In this document: positions 2,796-60,757 of the stretch, piece after piece
Layout: each line of letters begins with the position of its first letter
How positions within the stretch are numbered: position 1 is the stretch's first letter
Assembly: GCF_055900595.2 (NCBI RefSeq)
Contig: NZ_CM148325.1
Length of the DNA stretch: 64,000 bases
Reading direction: 5' to 3' (one strand)
Translations under genes and position numbers: made by a program
The notes under the pieces: generated by a model
What the model was told of the DNA's origin: nothing
Database searches by the model: none
The model's input: only the letters and a program-made list of their open reading frames with translations

Positions 2796-4949
2796 ATGCT
2801 AAGTCCTTTGCTCAAACGCTATACCTGGAACAGCGCCTGGCTGTATTACGCGCGTATTTTTATTGCGCTTTGTGGAACCACAGCGTTTCCGTGGTGGCTG
2901 GGTGATGTAAAACTGACGATTCCGCTGACGCTGGGGATGGTGGCAGCGGCGCTGACCGATCTCGATGACCGGCTGGCGGGACGTTTGCGTAACCTCATCA
3001 TTACGCTGTTCTGCTTTTTTATCGCCTCGGCCTCAGTAGAATTGCTGTTTCCCTGGCCCTGGCTATTTGCAATTGGTTTAACGCTCTCTACCAGCGGCTT
3101 CATTTTGCTCGGCGGTCTGGGTCAACGCTATGCAACAATTGCCTTCGGTGCGTTACTGATCGCCATTTACACTATGTTGGGGACGTCACTGTATGAGCAC
3201 TGGTATCAGCAGCCGATGTATCTGCTGGCCGGTGCCGTCTGGTACAACGTCCTGACACTTATTGGTCATCTACTGTTCCCGGTCCGCCCGTTACAGGACA
3301 ACCTGGCGCGTTGCTATGAACAACTGGCGCGTTATCTTGAGCTAAAGTCGCGCATGTTTGATCCTGATATTGAAGATGAAAGCCAAGCACCGCTGTACGA
3401 TTTGGCTCTCGCCAACGGACAGCTGATGGCGACATTGAATCAGACGAAACTCTCGCTGCTGACCCGTTTACGTGGCGATCGTGGTCAACGGGGAACGCGT
3501 CGCACGCTGCATTATTACTTTGTCGCGCAGGATATTCACGAGCGTGCCAGCTCTTCTCATATTCAGTATCAAACATTGCGTGAACATTTTCGCCACAGCG
3601 ACGTGCTGTTCCGTTTTCAGCGACTGATGTCGATGCAGGGCCAGGCGTGCCAGCAACTGTCACGCTGTATTTTGCTGCGTCAGCCTTATCAACATGATCC
3701 GCATTTTGAGCGCGCTTTTACGCATATTGATGCTGCGCTGGAGCGGATGCGCGATAACGGCGCGCCTGCCGATTTACTCAAAACACTGGGATTTTTGCTG
3801 AACAATTTACGCGCTATTGATGCCCAACTGGCAACAATTGAATCAGAACAGGCCCAGGCACTGCCCCATAATAATGACGAAAATGAGCTCGCTGATGACA
3901 GCCCGCACGGATTGAGTGATATCTGGCTGCGTCTTAGCCGTCACTTCACACCGGAATCCGCCCTCTTCCGTCATGCGGTAAGAATGTCGCTGGTGTTGTG
4001 CTTCGGCTACGCCATCATTCAGATAACCGGAATGCATCACGGGTATTGGATCTTGCTGACAAGTTTGTTTGTCTGCCAGCCAAACTATAACGCCACGCGC
4101 CACCGCCTGAAGTTAAGGATTATTGGTACGCTGGTAGGTATCGCCATTGGCATTCCTGTGCTGTGGTTTGTGCCGTCACTGGAAGGGCAGCTGGTGCTGC
4201 TGGTTATTACCGGCGTGCTCTTTTTTGCCTTCCGTAACGTGCAATATGCCCATGCAACGATGTTCATCACACTTTTGGTGCTACTTTGTTTTAACTTGCT
4301 GGGTGAAGGTTTTGAAGTGGCGTTACCTCGCGTAATCGATACGCTGATTGGTTGTGCCATTGCGTGGGCGGCGGTGAGCTACATCTGGCCTGACTGGAAG
4401 TTTCGCAATCTGCCGCGCATGCTCGAACGTGCCACCGAGGCCAACTGTCGCTATCTCGATGCCATACTGGAGCAATACCATCAGGGGCGTGATAACCGTC
4501 TGGCGTATCGTATTGCCCGCCGCGATGCACACAACCGTGATGCTGAACTGGCGTCGGTGGTATCAAATATGTCCAGCGAGCCGAACGTTACCCCGCAAAT
4601 TCGCGAGGCCGCGTTTCGGTTGCTGTGCCTTAACCATACGTTTACCAGCTATATCTCAGCCCTCGGTGCTCACCGGGAGCAGTTAACTAATCCTGAAATT
4701 CTGGCGTTTCTTGATGACGCAGTTTGCTATGTTGATGACGCGCTACATCATCAACCTGCTGATGAAGAACGCGTCAATCAGGCATTAGCTGACCTGAAAC
4801 AGCGGATGCAGCAACTTGAACCACGGGCAGACAGCAAAGAACCTCTGGTCGTACAACAAGTCGGGTTATTGATTGCATTACTGCCAGAGATTGGTCGTCT
4901 GCAACGCCAGATTACTCAAGTTCCGCAGGAAACTCCTGTTTCGGCGTAA
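2796..4949 (+). CDS. yccS: Putative inner-membrane efflux/transport protein YccS
   Basis: ORF 2787..4949; start set at ATG 2796 (MLSPLLKRYTWNSAWLYYARIF...) for 717 aa; multi-TM hydrophobic segments. Confidence 0.9.
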   Translation: MLSPLLKRYTWNSAWLYYARIFIALCGTTAFPWWLGDVKLTIPLTLGMVAAALTDLDDRLAGRLRNLIITLFCFFIASASVELLFPWPWLFAIGLTLSTSGFILLGGLGQRYATIAFGALLIAIYTMLGTSLYEHWYQQPMYLLAGAVWYNVLTLIGHLLFPVRPLQDNLARCYEQLARYLELKSRMFDPDIEDESQAPLYDLALANGQLMATLNQTKLSLLTRLRGDRGQRGTRRTLHYYFVAQDIHERASSSHIQYQTLREHFRHSDVLFRFQRLMSMQGQACQQLSRCILLRQPYQHDPHFERAFTHIDAALERMRDNGAPADLLKTLGFLLNNLRAIDAQLATIESEQAQALPHNNDENELADDSPHGLSDIWLRLSRHFTPESALFRHAVRMSLVLCFGYAIIQITGMHHGYWILLTSLFVCQPNYNATRHRLKLRIIGTLVGIAIGIPVLWFVPSLEGQLVLLVITGVLFFAFRNVQYAHATMFITLLVLLCFNLLGEGFEVALPRVIDTLIGCAIAWAAVSYIWPDWKFRNLPRMLERATEANCRYLDAILEQYHQGRDNRLAYRIARRDAHNRDAELASVVSNMSSEPNVTPQIREAAFRLLCLNHTFTSYISALGAHREQLTNPEILAFLDDAVCYVDDALHHQPADEERVNQALADLKQRMQQLEPRADSKEPLVVQQVGLLIALLPEIGRLQRQITQVPQETPVSA

Positions 4950-5541
4950 GAGAGTCAGCCCATTCTGCAAGCTCCTGGCGGCGTGCCACCGGGAGCGCAG
5001 CTTCATGAATGCCGATAATGGCCCCTTCAAGCATAAACAGAATCTTTTCTGTCACCAGACTGTTTTGCTGCCGCAGTCGCAACCAACACATTTTTGCCCC
5101 AAGTATACGTAACGCCCGTACATCCTTAATCCCCACCTCCCCGAGTATCGCTTCCAGATGAAAAGACATATTGGGCAAATCTTTCAGTCTTTCCCGGGTA
5201 TTGCGCGTGCTTTTCTCTTTCAGCGCTGCATCGAGAGAATATTTCGACAGACGCACCAGCTTCAGTTGATTTCGCCATAGACTTTCATCAACCCGATAGT
5301 AATTGAGGGTAACGGATCGGCCACACTTTTTATATGTCAGCCAGACAGGCGGATGTTTTACACAGTACTGTGCACTTTGCTCACAAGCCCGAAGATACAA
5401 CTCACCATCAGAAACCATCGCAAACACCGTGTCGTCAACGGTCAGGCTGTAACTACCAAACAATGATCGGTATTCAATTGTGCCCAACGTTGCCAGGTAT
5501 TCTTGTGATTTATAGATCCGCTTATAGGAGAGGCTTTTCAT
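4912..5541 (-). CDS. sxy: Competence regulator Sxy/TfoX
   Basis: 209-aa ORF MKSLSYKRIYKSQEYLATLGTIEYRSLFGSYSLTVDD...; ATG at 5541; 3' end overlaps yccS 3' end by 38 bp. Confidence 0.9.
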   Translation of the reverse strand: MKSLSYKRIYKSQEYLATLGTIEYRSLFGSYSLTVDDTVFAMVSDGELYLRACEQSAQYCVKHPPVWLTYKKCGRSVTLNYYRVDESLWRNQLKLVRLSKYSLDAALKEKSTRNTRERLKDLPNMSFHLEAILGEVGIKDVRALRILGAKMCWLRLRQQNSLVTEKILFMLEGAIIGIHEAALPVARRQELAEWADSLTPKQEFPAELE

Positions 5542-5717
5542 AAAATTCCTTTTAAAATCATAACATAAAAGAATGATTCACATTAACGGATCCGTTAACT
5601 ACGAAAATAGGCAACTTATTCTTAAGGGGCAAGATTAATTTATGTTTTCCCGTCACTAACGACAAAATTTGCGAGGCTCTTTCCGAAAATAGGGTTGATC
5701 TTTGTCGTCACTGGATG

Positions 5718-26252: not shown

Positions 26253-26452
26253 TGCCGGATGTGGCGCACAAAACCAGCGGTTTCAACGGATTGTAGGCCT
26301 GATAAGACGCGTCAAGCGTCGCATCAGGCATTTGGGCACGGCTGCCGGATGCGGCGTGAACGCCTTATCCAGCCTACAAAACCAGCATTTTCAACGGACT
26401 TGTAGGCCTGATAAGACGCGTCAAGCGTCGCATCCGGCATTTGGGCTCAAAA
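26253..26452. repeat. REP/BIME cluster (several REP units) between ssuB and pepN
   Basis: Near-identical 50-bp units GGA(T/C)TTGTAGGCCTGATAAGACGCGTCAAGCGTCGCATC(A/C)GGCATTTGGGC at 26299-26348 and 26395-26445 plus GCCGGATGCGGCGTGAACGCCTTATCCAGCCTAC; classic REP palindromes. Confidence 0.75.
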
Positions 26453-32147: not shown

Positions 32148-32496
32148 TCCTTTCTGTCAAGTTATCTGTTTGTTAAGTCAAGCAATCTATTTGCAACCCC
32201 GCCATAACGATCATCCTGTTACGGAATATTACACTGCAACATTTGCGCACAAAAAATAATCCGCATTCTTATTGCGGATTAGTTTTTTCTTAGCTGATAG
32301 CACAATTTTCATACTATTTTTTGGCGTTCTGGATGTCTGAACGAGGATTTATTGCCAGGTCGATAAAGTTTCCATCAGAAACAAAATTTCCTTTTAGTTA
32401 ATTTAAATATAAGGAAATCATATAAATAGATAAAAATTGCTGTAAATATCATCATGATTCAATGGAAATATGACGGCGTTCACAAAGTTCCTTAAA

Positions 32497-32560
32497 TTTT
32501 ACTTTTAGTTACATATTTTTTCTTTTTGAAACTAAATCTTTATCTTTGTAGCACTTTCAC
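32497..32560. promoter_or_regulatory. OmpR-binding region (F1-F3 boxes) of the ompF promoter
   Basis: TTTTACTTTTAGTTACATATTTTTTCTTTTTGAAACTAAATCTTTATCTTTGTAGCACTTTCAC, tandem TTTAC/GAAAC-type repeats matching the recalled ompF upstream activator sites; ~150-210 bp upstream of the ompF ATG. Confidence 0.55.
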
Positions 32561-32741
32561 GGTAGCGAAACGTTAGTTTGAATGGAAAGATGCCTGCAGA
32601 CACATAAAGACACCAAACTCTCATCAATAGTTCCGTAAATTTTTATTGACAGAACTTATTGACGGCAGTGGCAGGTGTCATAAAAAAACCATGAGGGTAA
32701 TAAATAATGATGAAGCGCAATATTCTGGCAGTGATCGTCCC

Positions 32742-32750
32742 TGCTCTGTT
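32742..32750. repeat. IS10 target-site duplication, left copy (TGCTCTGTT)
   Basis: 9-bp direct repeat identical to 34080-34088 and immediately flanking the IS10 termini; 9 bp is the IS10/Tn10 TSD length. Confidence 0.85.
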
Positions 32751-32796
32751 CTGATGAATCCCCTAATGATTTTGGTAAAAATCATTAAGTTAAGGT

Positions 32797-32865
32797 GGAT
32801 ACACATCTTGTCATATGATCAAATGGTTTCGCCAAAAATCAATAATCAGACAACAAAATGTGCGA
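32797..32865 (-). ncRNA. IS10 antisense RNA-OUT (pOUT transcript), predicted position
   Basis: Position inferred from established IS10 organisation (RNA-OUT ~69 nt, from about bp 115 outward to bp 47, overlapping the transposase start at bp 108, which here is 32858); not independently verified by folding. Confidence 0.45.
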
Positions 32866-34066
32866 ACTCGATATTTTACACGACTCTCTTTACCAATTCT
32901 GCCCCGAATTACACTTAAAACGACTCAACAGCTTAACGTTGGCTTGCCACGCCTTACTTGACTGTAAAACTCTCACTCTTACCGAACTTGGCCGTAACCT
33001 GCCAACCAAAGCGAGAACAAAACATAACATCAAACGAATCGACCGATTGTTAGGTAATCGTCACCTCCACAAAGAGCGACTCGCTGTATACCGTTGGCAT
33101 GCTAGCTTTATCTGTTCGGGCAATACGATGCCCATTGTACTTGTTGACTGGTCTGATATCCGTGAGCAAAAACGGCTTATGGTATTGCGAGCTTCAGTCG
33201 CACTACACGGTCGTTCTGTTACTCTTTATGAGAAAGCGTTCCCGCTTTCAGAGCAATGTTCAAAGAAAGCTCATGACCAATTTCTAGCCGACCTTGCGAG
33301 CATTCTACCGAGTAACACCACACCGCTCATTGTCAGTGATGCTGGCTTTAAAGTGCCATGGTATAAATCCGTTGAGAAGCTGGGTTGGTACTGGTTAAGT
33401 CGAGTAAGAGGAAAAGTACAATATGCAGACCTAGGAGCGGAAAACTGGAAACCTATCAGCAACTTACATGATATGTCATCTAGTCACTCAAAGACTTTAG
33501 GCTATAAGAGGCTGACTAAAAGCAATCCAATCTCATGCCAAATTCTATTGTATAAATCTCGCTCTAAAGGCCGAAAAAATCAGCGCTCGACACGGACTCA
33601 TTGTCACCACCCGTCACCTAAAATCTACTCAGCGTCGGCAAAGGAGCCATGGATTCTAGCAACTAACTTACCTGTTGAAATTCGAACACCCAAACAACTT
33701 GTTAATATCTATTCGAAGCGAATGCAGATTGAAGAAACCTTCCGAGACTTGAAAAGTCCTGCCTACGGACTAGGCCTACGCCATAGCCGAACGAGCAGCT
33801 CAGAGCGTTTTGATATCATGCTGCTAATCGCCCTGATGCTTCAACTAACATGTTGGCTTGCGGGCGTTCATGCTCAGAAACAAGGTTGGGACAAGCACTT
33901 CCAGGCTAACACAGTCAGAAATCGAAACGTACTCTCAACAGTTCGCTTAGGCATGGAAGTTTTGCGGCATTCTGGCTACACAATAACAAGGGAAGACTCA
34001 CTCGTGGCTGCAACCCTGCTTACTCAAAATCTATTCACACATGGTTACGTTTTGGGGAAATTATGA
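32858..34066 (+). CDS. IS10 transposase
   Basis: 402-aa [84 protein letters not shown]...; ATG at IS10 bp 108 as in canonical IS10. Confidence 0.95.
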
Positions 34067-34079
34067 GGGGATCTCTCAG

Positions 34080-34088
34080 TGCTCTGTT
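34080..34088. repeat. IS10 target-site duplication, right copy (TGCTCTGTT)
   Basis: Identical to 32742-32750; continues in frame into ompF codons [10 protein letters not shown]. Confidence 0.85.
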
Positions 34089-35160
34089 AGTAGCAGGTAC
34101 TGCAAACGCTGCAGAAATTTATAACAAAGATGGCAACAAAGTAGATCTGTACGGTAAAGCTGTCGGTCTGCATTATTTCTCCAAGGGTAACGGTGAAAAC
34201 AGTTACGGTGGCAATGGCGACATGACCTATGCCCGTCTTGGTTTTAAAGGGGAAACTCAAATCAATTCCGATCTGACCGGTTATGGTCAGTGGGAATATA
34301 ACTTCCAGGGTAACAACTCTGAAGGCGCTGACGCTCAAACTGGTAACAAAACCCGTCTGGCATTCGCGGGTCTTAAATACGCTGACGTTGGTTCTTTCGA
34401 TTACGGCCGTAACTACGGTGTGGTTTATGATGCACTGGGTTACACCGATATGCTGCCAGAATTTGGTGGTGACACGGCATACAGCGATGACTTCTTCGTT
34501 GGTCGTGTTGGCGGCGTTGCTACCTATCGTAACTCCAACTTCTTTGGTCTGGTTGATGGCCTGAACTTCGCTGTTCAGTACCTGGGTAAAAACGAGCGTG
34601 ACACTGCACGCCGCTCTAACGGCGACGGTGTTGGCGGTTCTATCAGCTACGAATACGAAGGCTTTGGTATCGTTGGTGCTTATGGCGCCGCTGACCGTAC
34701 CAACCTGCAAGAAGCTCAACCTCTTGGCAACGGTAAAAAAGCTGAACAGTGGGCTACTGGTCTGAAGTATGACGCGAACAACATCTACCTGGCAGCGAAC
34801 TACGGTGAAACCCGTAACGCTACGCCGATCACTAATAAATTTACAAACATCAGCGGCTTCGCCAACAAAACGCAAGATGTTCTGTTAGTTGCGCAATACC
34901 AGTTCGATTTCGGTCTGCGTCCGTCCATCGCTTACACCAAATCTAAAGCGAAAGACGTAGAAGGTATCGGTGATGTTGATCTGGTGAACTACTTTGAAGT
35001 GGGCGCAACCTACTACTTCAACAAAAACATGTCCACCTATGTTGACTACATCATCAACCAGATCGATTCTGACAACAAACTGGGCGTAGGTTCAGACGAC
35101 ACCGTTGCTGTGGGTATCGTTTACCAGTTCTAATAGCACACCTCTTTGTTAAATGCCGAA

Positions 35161-54270: not shown

Positions 54271-56535
54271 CTACCCGTTATCCACTGGCACGCCAAACCA
54301 CTGATGATACCAACGAGGTAAAATTTGCTCTCTGAGGCTGCTAATCCGCCAGCCTTGCGCTGAAAAATTGACCGTTATTTGACCCTGATGTGGAGTATCG
54401 AGCCACTTATAACCCTGTTGTTGATAGCGATGTTTAACTTTGCTTGAGGGCAGTCGCCATGCGTTATAGCGCGATGCCGATGCGAGTGCCACTTTTCCAT
54501 TCACTCGCTGAATTAATGGCAACGATGATGAGGTATTACTGCCATGGTGAGGTACCTGAAGTAATGTTGCTTGTACTTGCTGCCAGTAACGGCTTAGCAT
54601 CTTTTGTTCAGCGGGGGCTTCAATATCACCGGTTAGGAGAATGCTATTCGTCCCGTCATCAACCTTAACCACACAGGAATGGTTATTTCCTTTATCGTTG
54701 CTACCTTGTAAAGGCCAGTGCACGCTGAAACGCAATCCTTGCCATTGCCACGCTTCGCCACGCACACAGGGCTGATGATGTTCCCAGCTTAAAGGGCTTC
54801 TGACCCATAACGTCGGCCAGGCTCGTAATATCGAGTCCAGCCCTCCCCGATGATCCAGATGTTCATGACTCAAAATGACGCCTTCTGGTTCAAGATTATG
54901 CCAGCGTAGCCAGGGGATAATCAGTTGTTGCCCACTATCCCCCTCCGGCCAGGCCAGTCCGGTGTCATAGAGAATCGCTTTACCGTTTCTGGCTATCACC
55001 ATTGCCAGCCCTTGCCCGACATCAAGCATGTACACCTGCCACGCGTCAGGTCGAGTTTTTTGCCACAGCGGCCAGCACATCAGCAAGCCTCCAGCCACAC
55101 ACATTGCCGGCAACGCTCGCCAGGCGTTTAATCGCCATACCACCAGTAAGAACCATGGGGAAAATGATAGCCATTGCCAACGTTCAGCAATGTTGATCCA
55201 CCCTTCCGGCAAACTCTTTAACCCCCAGAAAAGTAAAGCCAAAGACCGGTCGGCAAGAAACCATACTCCTTGCTCCACGATTAACGGCCCGCTTAAATGC
55301 ATAACCATCGCTGCGAGGATCAACGGAACCGTGATAAATGTCACCAGGGGAATTGCAAATAGGTTTGCAATAAACGAGGTCAGACTAATGCCATGAAATA
55401 TGACGATTTGCACAGGCATTAGCAGGAGCGTGATTCCCAGTTGTAGATGGATGAGGGCAACAACCGCGCGCAATACTGGCGGCAGTTGCCACTCCGGACA
55501 GGGAAACCACTGATACCAAAAAATCAGCGCCGCTACCGCAGCGGCAGAGAGCCATAAACTTTGCGAAAGAATGGCAACAGGATCCATCAGCAAAATTGCC
55601 GCCAGACAACATATCCATACATCCCAGCCACTCCATTGTCGTCCACTTAACTTAAGCATTCCCCAAATGGCAAGCGCCACCACGGTACGCAATGCAGGAG
55701 GTTGCATTCCCGTTAGCCAGGCATAAAAAGCAGCACAGCAGATTCCGCCAATTAATGGCATTTGCCAGTGGATCCAGCACCCAGGCAGAAAAACTTGCCC
55801 ACCGCGAATGAGTCCTGCAGCCAGCAACGCCGCAAAAGCGATGTGCAATCCTGATATCGCCATTAAATGCGCCGTTCCAGTATCACGCATGATATTTTTG
55901 ATTTCTTTGGGGACGGATAACCGTTCCCCCATACCTAATCCAAGAATAACCGCGTTCCACATATAGGGTTGCAGCGTTGTTTGTAGTGACGCCAGATACT
56001 GTGCACGCAGGCTACAATTCGGTTCAATGACACTTGCCTGCAGAAAACGGCCGGTGAGCGGTTGATGCTGGGCAATGGCATAACGCTGGCTATCAAAGCC
56101 GCCATCATTAAGTTGACCATGAACTGCACGAACTTTGAGTTTCATTGACCATACTTGTCCGGCACAAACCGCTTGCGGAAGATATTCGCCATACAGTACG
56201 AGGCCTGGCGCAGGGAATATACGTCGACCTTGTAGATGAGTAATTTGACCGTAATGAGTGGTCATGCCGTCAGTAGCAATGATCTCAACAATTGCATCCT
56301 GCGTCGAGCCAGTTAAGGTTTCTCCTGCCCACAAAATTTGCTTTGCTGCTAATATGCCCCAAACGAAAAACAGCAACGTCAGCGCGATATAACGGACGGT
56401 TTTAACAGGGATAAATGCCAGTACACAGGCGAAGATAGTCAGAAGCGCAAGGGTTACTGTCCCTGGCAATTGGGGCAAAATCAGCAACGGAAAAATTCCG
56501 CAAATTATGCATACTCCGACTGTCGTTATTTTCAT
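54271..56535 (-). CDS. ycaI: ComEC/Rec2-family inner membrane protein YcaI
   Basis: ATG 56535 MKITTVGVCIICGIFPLLILPQLPG... (754 aa); polytopic membrane domain plus C-terminal metallo-beta-lactamase-like region (...LSHEHLDHRGG...). Confidence 0.88.
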   Translation of the reverse strand: MKITTVGVCIICGIFPLLILPQLPGTVTLALLTIFACVLAFIPVKTVRYIALTLLFFVWGILAAKQILWAGETLTGSTQDAIVEIIATDGMTTHYGQITHLQGRRIFPAPGLVLYGEYLPQAVCAGQVWSMKLKVRAVHGQLNDGGFDSQRYAIAQHQPLTGRFLQASVIEPNCSLRAQYLASLQTTLQPYMWNAVILGLGMGERLSVPKEIKNIMRDTGTAHLMAISGLHIAFAALLAAGLIRGGQVFLPGCWIHWQMPLIGGICCAAFYAWLTGMQPPALRTVVALAIWGMLKLSGRQWSGWDVWICCLAAILLMDPVAILSQSLWLSAAAVAALIFWYQWFPCPEWQLPPVLRAVVALIHLQLGITLLLMPVQIVIFHGISLTSFIANLFAIPLVTFITVPLILAAMVMHLSGPLIVEQGVWFLADRSLALLFWGLKSLPEGWINIAERWQWLSFSPWFLLVVWRLNAWRALPAMCVAGGLLMCWPLWQKTRPDAWQVYMLDVGQGLAMVIARNGKAILYDTGLAWPEGDSGQQLIIPWLRWHNLEPEGVILSHEHLDHRGGLDSILRAWPTLWVRSPLSWEHHQPCVRGEAWQWQGLRFSVHWPLQGSNDKGNNHSCVVKVDDGTNSILLTGDIEAPAEQKMLSRYWQQVQATLLQVPHHGSNTSSSLPLIQRVNGKVALASASRYNAWRLPSSKVKHRYQQQGYKWLDTPHQGQITVNFSAQGWRISSLREQILPRWYHQWFGVPVDNG

Positions 56536-56684
56536 GCACCCTCCCTGTTTATAGAAAGTGTGCAACTTTGTTGAATGGTTGTCTGGTGGGAGTTTTGCGT
56601 TCCCCGAGGCACGTTCAGAAGAATTTAACGACAGGGTGAAAACTGCTCAAAACTCTGCGAGGCAGCTTCCAGTTCCAGATTAGA

Positions 56685-60589: not shown

Positions 60590-60757
60590 GTGAATCATCC
60601 GTTGATTAATCATATATAAATATTATGTATCAATAACTTACATCGACAAACGACGCTATCATTAATCAAAATGACTCACAAGGTCCGAAAAAAAACGCCG
60701 GCAATGTGCCGACGTTTTGATAAAGAAAGATTTGGCTATTTATTGCACGTTGTTCAT

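Follow-up and report, generated by a model that had tools for sequence, protein, structure and literature searches.

The ompF gene of this Escherichia coli genome is broken within its signal-peptide coding region, which raises the questions of what interrupts it, how the interrupting DNA arrived there and whether the gene can still give rise to OmpF. We addressed these questions computationally in a stretch of 64,000 nucleotides that includes the gene (the window). The explanation that best accounts for the observations as a whole, and in which we place high confidence, is that an IS10 element transposed into a preferred site in ompF and in all likelihood left the strain strongly depleted of OmpF.

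A complete IS10 in the signal-peptide region of ompF

The ompF start codon lies at 32707, and the gene reads ATG ATG AAG CGC AAT ATT CTG GCA GTG ATC GTC CCT GCT CTG TT before it runs into CTGATGAATCCCCTAATGATTTTGG at 32751. It is no longer one intact gene with its native start and signal peptide, as the break falls after codon 14 and translation would stop after 15 residues; the 5′ stub (32707–32754, + strand) consists of 15 codons encoding MMKRNILAVIVPALF and a TGA stop codon built from IS10 nt 2–4. The 3′ remainder (34080–35133, + strand) extends from the last base of codon 12 to the stop codon and encodes the remaining part of the signal peptide together with the entire mature OmpF; the insertion parts it from the native promoter, ribosome-binding site and start codon. 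The locus order asnS-ompF-aspC is kept, as judged from the neighbouring ORFs and the annotation of collinear relatives. The ompF promoter region and 5′ untranslated leader (32497–32706, + strand) are collinear with the asnS-ompF intergenic region of these relatives; the OmpR boxes are placed approximately, at positions that we assume from the K-12 ompF promoter.

A 9-bp direct repeat, TGCTCTGTT, borders the interrupting DNA at 32742–32750 on the left and at 34080–34088 on the right. The two copies match perfectly (9/9), with a chance probability of 3.8e-6, and the target corresponds to ompF nt 36–44, in codons 12–15.

Between the repeats lies a complete and solitary element of exactly 1,329 bp (32751–34079, + strand), an IS10 of the ISVsa5 type, whose outside end faces the ompF promoter and whose transposase gene is co-directional with ompF. 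It starts with CTGATGAATCCCCTAATGATTTTGG at 32751 and ends with GGGGATCTCTCAG at 34079. Its termini are the outside-end repeat CTGATGAATCCCCTAATGATTTT (32751–32773, + strand) and the inside-end repeat CTGAGAGATCCCCTCATAATTTCC (34056–34079, − strand). The corresponding 23-nt and 24-nt patterns matched exactly and in inverted orientation, each once in the 64 kb, where shuffled sequence gave an expectation of 0. The transposase gene (32858–34066, + strand) is intact and encodes 402 aa identical to WP_001352368.1; the protein scores as an IS4-family transposase (NCBIfam NF033591, 402 bits against a cutoff of 152) and carries D, D and E at positions 97, 161 and 292, which we take, following the numbering of the Tn10 literature, to be the DDE triad. 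The antisense RNA gene for RNA-OUT (IS10 nt 46–115; 32796–32865, − strand), overlapping the 5′ start of the transposase mRNA, matches Rfam RF00240 over positions 1–70 of 70 with 97.3 bits against a gathering score of 41. GATC occurs in this copy at IS nt 67, in the pIN region, and at IS nt 1320, within the inside end, and nowhere else in the element; the regulatory role of the Dam sites of IS10 is established. Over its full length, the copy is 99.2–99.9% identical to the Tn10 (R100) and plasmid copies with which we compared it, and its 1,329 bp match thousands of plasmid copies labelled "IS4-like element ISVsa5 family transposase" at 99.7–99.9%. Thus, the element is IS10 on every feature tested.

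A search for IS10 termini found no second IS10 end in the 64-kb window, and no tet genes were found there either. The element is therefore not part of a composite Tn10 here, and membership of a Tn10 within the window is ruled out. A preliminary description of this DNA had proposed a complete IS10 with an intact transposase, and the termini, length, ORF, RNA-OUT and Dam sites are indeed all present; the coordinates, the 1,329 bp, the 402-aa ORF and the direct repeat that it gave were likewise all recovered as described.

We then compared the locus with its uninterrupted counterparts. Eight complete genomes (E400634, E500002, E600003, 100117, 100248, E200086, AST85 and Z0117EC0005) are essentially identical to the window over 20 kb on the right side of the insertion, and in these closest genomes ompF is uninterrupted and the 9-mer is present in a single copy. 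In the two relatives whose records we opened, one isolated from human stool in Kenya and the other from a dog in Korea, asnS and aspC flank an uninterrupted ompF of 362 aa. BLAST of the window against E400634 returned two collinear blocks at ~99.97% identity: positions 1–32750 with 10 mismatches, and positions 34080–64000 with 5 mismatches and a single 1-bp indel. On the reference, these blocks share exactly 9 bp, the hallmark of a genuine target duplication. When the IS and one repeat were deleted in silico, the result matched exactly across the junction and encoded an OmpF of 362 aa whose sequence equals that of WP_000977917.1, the annotated OmpF of the relatives. The reference overlap and the single-copy 9-mer in the relatives confirm the earlier proposal that the flanking 9-mers duplicate one original site, and with it an insertion in the signal-peptide region that leaves a 15-residue stub.

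In the 5.4 kb around ompF, the sole difference from the relatives apart from the insertion is an SNP at 32533, which falls within the second OmpR box. We considered it as a second hit on ompF and rejected it as such, since the exact 31-mer occurs in 2,197 of 5,426 genomes and the SNP is thus a common polymorphism.

The same comparison bears on whether the junctions are real. Insertion sequences are a frequent cause of misjoins, and many E. coli genomes hold several IS10 copies, so that a copy from elsewhere in the genome might have been misplaced into ompF during assembly. A misjoin, however, would not leave perfect 9-bp repeats on either side where the empty site has just one copy; moreover, the relatives are collinear with the window on both sides of the element across 64 kb, and identical junctions are present in independently assembled genomes of other lineages. 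We consider an assembly artefact extremely improbable. The findings instead fit cut-and-paste transposition, in which a 9-bp staggered cut in the target would have been filled in to give the TGCTCTGTT duplication. An intact, solitary IS10 would thus have moved into ompF of a natural E. coli lineage. All parts of the copy are intact, and it is a recent insertion, because it is missing from near-identical relatives.

The preliminary description had also taken IS10 as a clue to strain history, marking laboratory or Tn10-mutagenised ancestry. There is some ground for this suggestion: the laboratory strain ET12567 has the same insertion in the same orientation, and IS10 copies are known in DH10B, JM109 and XL1-Blue (PMC11148124). 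The window, however, is not K-12: its junction flanks are ~98–99% identical to those of ET12567, as against ~99.97% to E400634, a human stool isolate, and over the 20-kb right flank, seven further field isolates, including one from a dog, are just as close as E400634. The IS10 alleles of the window and of ET12567 are 10 positions apart, and the window has neither the tet genes nor the second IS10 of a Tn10. Nor is IS10 itself informative in this respect, as 1,812 of 5,426 complete E. coli genomes contain its interior sequence, at up to 45 places per genome. With one third of complete E. coli genomes carrying IS10 and field isolates as the nearest relatives, the clue does not hold, and laboratory ancestry is very improbable.

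Expected loss of OmpF and a hybrid reading frame

Given an IS10 at this position, the native OmpR-controlled promoter and leader would now drive only the 15-codon stub, and the 351-codon remainder would be without promoter, ribosome-binding site, start codon and the initial half of the signal sequence. Because ompF is split from its promoter, ribosome-binding site and start codon, normal OmpF synthesis would be expected to be abolished, and the strain is likely to be strongly OmpF-depleted. Reduced uptake of OmpF-dependent antibiotics, colicins and phages should follow, and an envelope phenotype is predicted. The insertion predicts a strong drop in a major diffusion channel that is also a phage and colicin receptor, and this drop bears on how the antibiotic susceptibility of the strain is to be read.

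Whether the allele is a complete null is another matter. An ORF of 356 aa (34063–35133, + strand) has its start codon within the IS10 inside end; from ompF codon 12 onwards it follows the ompF frame and continues into the mature N-terminus AEIYNK…. Its ATG overlaps the transposase stop codon (ATGA), and GGGG lies 6–9 nt upstream. The encoded protein scores as OmpF (NCBIfam NF007446, 763.9 bits against a cutoff of 583, over profile positions 12–362). It keeps a signal-peptide-like N-terminus and the entire mature OmpF: the N-terminus has one positive charge, the native cleavage site and a 7-residue hydrophobic core with a mean KD of 2.63, compared with 3.06 for the native one.

IS10 carries outward promoters at both ends, according to PMC4574204. 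PMC11481808 places two promoters, pIII and OUTIIp, in the segment IS10 nt 1000–1230 (33750–33980, + strand), reports them to be active in E. coli and directed outwards across the inside end, and describes an IS10L insertion after which downstream genes were still expressed. In the present copy this segment is identical to that of both R100 IS10 copies, and the two promoters may be active here as well. A consensus scan of 32400–34400 found no sigma-70-like + strand site near the inside end, with counts equal to the shuffle expectation, and on the + strand of the IS no convincing intrinsic terminator was seen, the one weak match again equalling the shuffle expectation. These scans neither support nor exclude pIII and OUTIIp.

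With the hybrid ORF and the outward promoters that have been reported close to the inside end, the allele may be less than a complete null. Transcripts that read through from pIN or from the ompF promoter, or that start at pIII/OUTIIp, could reach the hybrid ORF, and initiation at the inside-end ATG would give a pre-OmpF with a substitute signal peptide, cleaved at the native site between ANA and AE. Such a leaky, re-wired allele would yield a low level of authentic mature OmpF, released from control exerted via the native 5′ leader. The in-frame ORF that scores as OmpF, the ATGA overlap with its GGGG, the single positive charge with a short hydrophobic core and retained cleavage site, and the apparent lack of a + strand intrinsic terminator in the IS are all consistent with it. 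So is the activity of pIII/OUTIIp, together with the continued downstream expression, as reported in PMC11481808, since the segment is unchanged here.

Several observations point the other way. The substitute hydrophobic core is short, the consensus scan found no promoter, and the predicted RNA fold around the hybrid start has the GGGG paired, although with a z of only −1.5. The expression of the IS10 transposase is extremely low and pIN is weak, which argues against more than slight expression. A long and poorly translated message of 1.2 kb also invites Rho-dependent polarity. We also folded the IS10 5′ region (+ strand) to see whether read-through transcripts might mask the transposase start by folding back on it; the predicted structure did not exceed shuffled sequence (z = −1.2), the minimum-energy structure was not the expected hairpin, and the fold thus carried no information on this point. 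On balance, we regard the leaky allele as unlikely, and it is doubtful that detectable OmpF is made. The preliminary description had gone from truncation to porin deficiency. Its 15-residue stub stands and a strong loss of OmpF is likely, but a clean null does not follow, given the in-frame hybrid ORF and the reported outward promoters.

A recurrent IS10 target at ompF codons 12–15

Strong depletion of OmpF by IS10 transposition, our preferred reading, includes the claim that the site is a preferred one. To survey its use, both junctions were searched against complete genomes and the matches were opened. The K-12 laboratory strain ET12567 has IS10 at the same 9 bp in the same orientation, with an IS10 allele that differs at 10 nt. 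The same 9 bp is occupied in the opposite orientation in clinical isolates, namely 3985, from blood (Houston), and the Taiwan strains 613, 571 and 774, of which 613 and 774 were opened. Elsewhere at the locus, OW968124 (opened) and OW967975 carry a same-orientation insertion in mid-gene ompF with the target duplication GGCGTTGCT, and same-orientation insertions lie 97 bp upstream of the ompF ATG in EC11 and 143 bp upstream of it in 201609, the IS10 copy of the latter being 1,328 bp long and frameshifted.

The flanks of 3985 and 613 are 4 SNPs apart and their IS copies differ at 15 positions. Because the copies differ so much more than the flanks, the comparison argues for two separate insertion events. 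The same-orientation junction is also present in four draft assemblies found by exact-protein look-ups (GCA_002468335.1, GCA_025049455.1, GCA_018344755.1 and GCA_012847095.2); in the first of these, the flank is 98.9% identical to the window and the IS inside end is of the IS10-Right type. As these look-ups were aimed at this site, the four assemblies were left out of the site statistics, which use only the window and the unbiased junction survey. On this basis, 4 of 7 independent events fall at one site among the 18 sites in ompF that fit the relaxed consensus (corrected P ~0.005). Thus, ompF nt 36–44 is a natural hotspot for IS10: insertions have arisen there independently in unrelated strains of laboratory and clinical lineages, in either orientation.

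The core sequence of the target does not account for this use. TGCTCTGTT fits fully the relaxed target consensus NRCNNNGYN, as quoted in PMC4574204. Against the strict consensus NGCTNAGCN, it matches at 4 of the 6 specified bases, in keeping with the earlier remark that the agreement is confined to the first half, and five other sites in ompF match better. Since better strict-consensus matches exist elsewhere in the gene, the preference must be due to flanking context or selection, not to the core consensus. We found no description of this ompF site in the literature searched for IS10/ISVsa5 in ompF, the coverage of which was incomplete; the same search returned IS10 in other porin genes and in mcr-1.

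The annotation of these alleles gives no sign of the insertion. NCBI labels the hybrid ORFs of ET12567, 3985, 613 and 774 as an intact "porin OmpF". With the IS inverted, the hybrid ORF is 362 aa long, starting with MILIKIIRGFISALLVAG… in 3985 and with MIFTKIIRGF… in those from Taiwan. Four hybrid proteins were looked up and are found on 1, 6, 2 and 21 public contigs (30 in total), the Taiwan type accounting for the 21. A disrupted gene is labelled as a porin because an ATG in either IS10 end reopens the frame, so that screens for porin loss based on annotated proteins will overlook ompF::IS10 alleles.

The recurrence also invites an adaptive reading, in which insertion at codons 12–15 creates a porin down-tuning allele. 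Either IS10 end could supply an in-frame ATG, a signal N-terminus and an outward promoter (pIII/OUTIIp at the inside end, pOUT at the outside end). If this were true, low-level authentic mature OmpF would be uncoupled from OmpR and MicF control, antibiotic pressure would favour alleles of this kind, and annotation that calls the gene intact would hide them. We consider this reading decidedly unlikely.

Comparison with known IS10 copies and porin insertions

The obvious references for the element are the two IS10 copies of Tn10 on R100 (NC_002134.1). We assume from the Tn10 map that the copy on the gltS side is IS10-Left and the copy on the tetD side IS10-Right. Both have the length, termini, 402-aa transposase, RNA-OUT, Dam sites and 9-bp duplication of the copy in the window; by contrast, the latter is solitary and lies outside any Tn10. 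The copy beside gltS/jemA differs from it by 4 nt (nt 24, 25, 27 and 47) and 0 aa (99.7% identity), and the copy beside tetD by 11 nt and 4 aa (I266V, S381L, T389A and V398A; 99.2%). The bases at nt 24–47 agree with the tetD-side copy (IS10-Right) and those at nt 83–1300 with the gltS-side copy (IS10-Left). The element in the window is thus a natural mosaic, with a whole transposase of the IS10-Left/ISVsa5 type. An ISVsa5 copy on pAPEC-O2-211A-ColV is closer still, with 1 nt difference in 1,329 bp and an identical transposase protein, WP_001352368.1; nothing of substance differs between ISVsa5 and the present copy, which is the same element in a chromosomal setting. IS10-Right, which the preliminary description had chosen as the reference for alignment, is accordingly not the best match, being 11 nt and 4 aa off where the gltS-side copy is 4 nt and 0 aa and the pAPEC-O2-211A copy 1 nt off. 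ISVsa5, the name under which NCBI and ISfinder list natural IS10 copies, has been handled as a synonym of IS10R (PMC10885879). An old report that the IS10-Left transposase is inactive is repeated in PMC11148124, and repeated transposition of an IS10L copy has been seen (PMC11481808). The copy in the window encodes a transposase of this protein type and was inserted recently.

At the level of the allele, the closest counterpart is ompF::IS10 of ET12567 (NZ_CP045457.1), which shares the 9-bp target, the orientation, the hybrid ORF and the flanking genes asnS and aspC. It differs in host lineage and in IS10 allele (10 nt) and is therefore an independent event. The alleles of 3985 and of 613, 571 and 774 share the target and its duplication; there the IS is inverted, such that the outside end with pOUT adjoins the ompF remainder.

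At the level of the event, resistant clinical isolates with IS10 in a porin gene such as ompK36 are on record (PMC6340961), and IS10 in ompK36 also appears in a reference cited in PMC7771540. These IS10/IS10R insertions in ompK36 of Klebsiella pneumoniae belong to the same class of event, in which a general porin is inactivated, in another gene and species. The element and the kind of event are thus already known, and the same ompF allele is already in public genomes. What is mildly new is that the 9-bp site in ompF is a repeated hotspot, used in both orientations, and that annotation masks the disruption.

A natural IS10 target within ompF

The 9-bp target carrying the window's IS10 (nt 36-44 of ompF, seen at window 32742-32750) is also the one used in other ompF::IS10 loci (L001, L002, L010 and L013-L018). 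Several lineages acquired IS10 here in independent events, some in one orientation and some in the other, and we conclude that ompF nt 36-44 is a natural IS10 hotspot. Under the strict IS10 target consensus, five other sites in ompF match better than nt 36-44; the preference for this site may stem from its flanking context or from selection. One of these loci, L015, comes from a draft assembly (GCA_025049455.1, DAJAZU010000020.1) and shares the right IS10-ompF junction of the window. To the left of its IS10, fimbrial protein genes (L015 1-1300) replace asnS and the 5′ end of ompF. This arrangement suggests an IS10-mediated inversion or deletion in this genome.

Hybrid reading frames and their annotation

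The IS10-disrupted ompF is labelled as an intact "porin OmpF" in the NCBI annotation, because an ATG in either end of IS10 reopens the frame. The resulting hybrid ORF, which joins the IS10-end ATG to the remainder of ompF, lies at 34063-35133 in the window, and ORFs of the same kind lie at 4514-5584 in L001 and at 4496-5584 in both L002 and L013. The hybrid frame encodes 356 amino acids when IS10 is oriented as in the window and 362 in the opposite orientation; the four hybrid proteins are found in 1, 6, 2 and 21 public contigs.

The ompF promoter and other local differences

Over the 5.4 kb around ompF, the window departs from its closest relatives at a single base: position 32533 is T where they have C. 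This base lies in the ompF promoter, in what we take to be its second OmpR-binding box, as positioned in K-12. This T is a common polymorphism, since the 31-mer surrounding it is found in 2,197 of 5,426 genomes. In strain 201609, the ompF promoter region holds a decayed IS10 copy (L012 1373-2700), inserted 143 bp upstream of the gene; this copy is 1,328 bp long and its transposase is annotated as frameshifted.

Elsewhere in the window, the ComEC-family ycaI ORF (54271-56565, minus strand) is open, whereas in E400634, a near-identical relative, a SNP (window 56359) gives an internal stop at codon 69 and the gene is annotated as a pseudogene. A homopolymer between ycaL and aroA (60688-60696) reads A8 versus A9 in E400634, which may be genuine or may reflect an error in sequencing. 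The ssuB-pepN intergenic region (26268-26446) contains two copies of a repeat of about 71 bp, 94% identical and cross-matching in BLAST, which are probably REP/BIME-type intergenic repeats.

Composition of the window's IS10

We compared the window's IS10 with the two copies of plasmid R100, presumably IS10-Right on the tetD side and IS10-Left on the gltS side. The four variable bases close to the outside end, at window 32774-32797 (IS10 nt 24-47), match the tetD-side copy, and the remaining variable positions (nt 83-1300), together with the protein, match the gltS-side copy. Judged by its sequence, the element is a mosaic of the IS10-Right-side and IS10-Left-side types. The IS10-Left type was reported to be inactive in older literature, a statement repeated in PMC11148124; despite that report, an IS10 with a protein of this type has clearly moved in the window's lineage.
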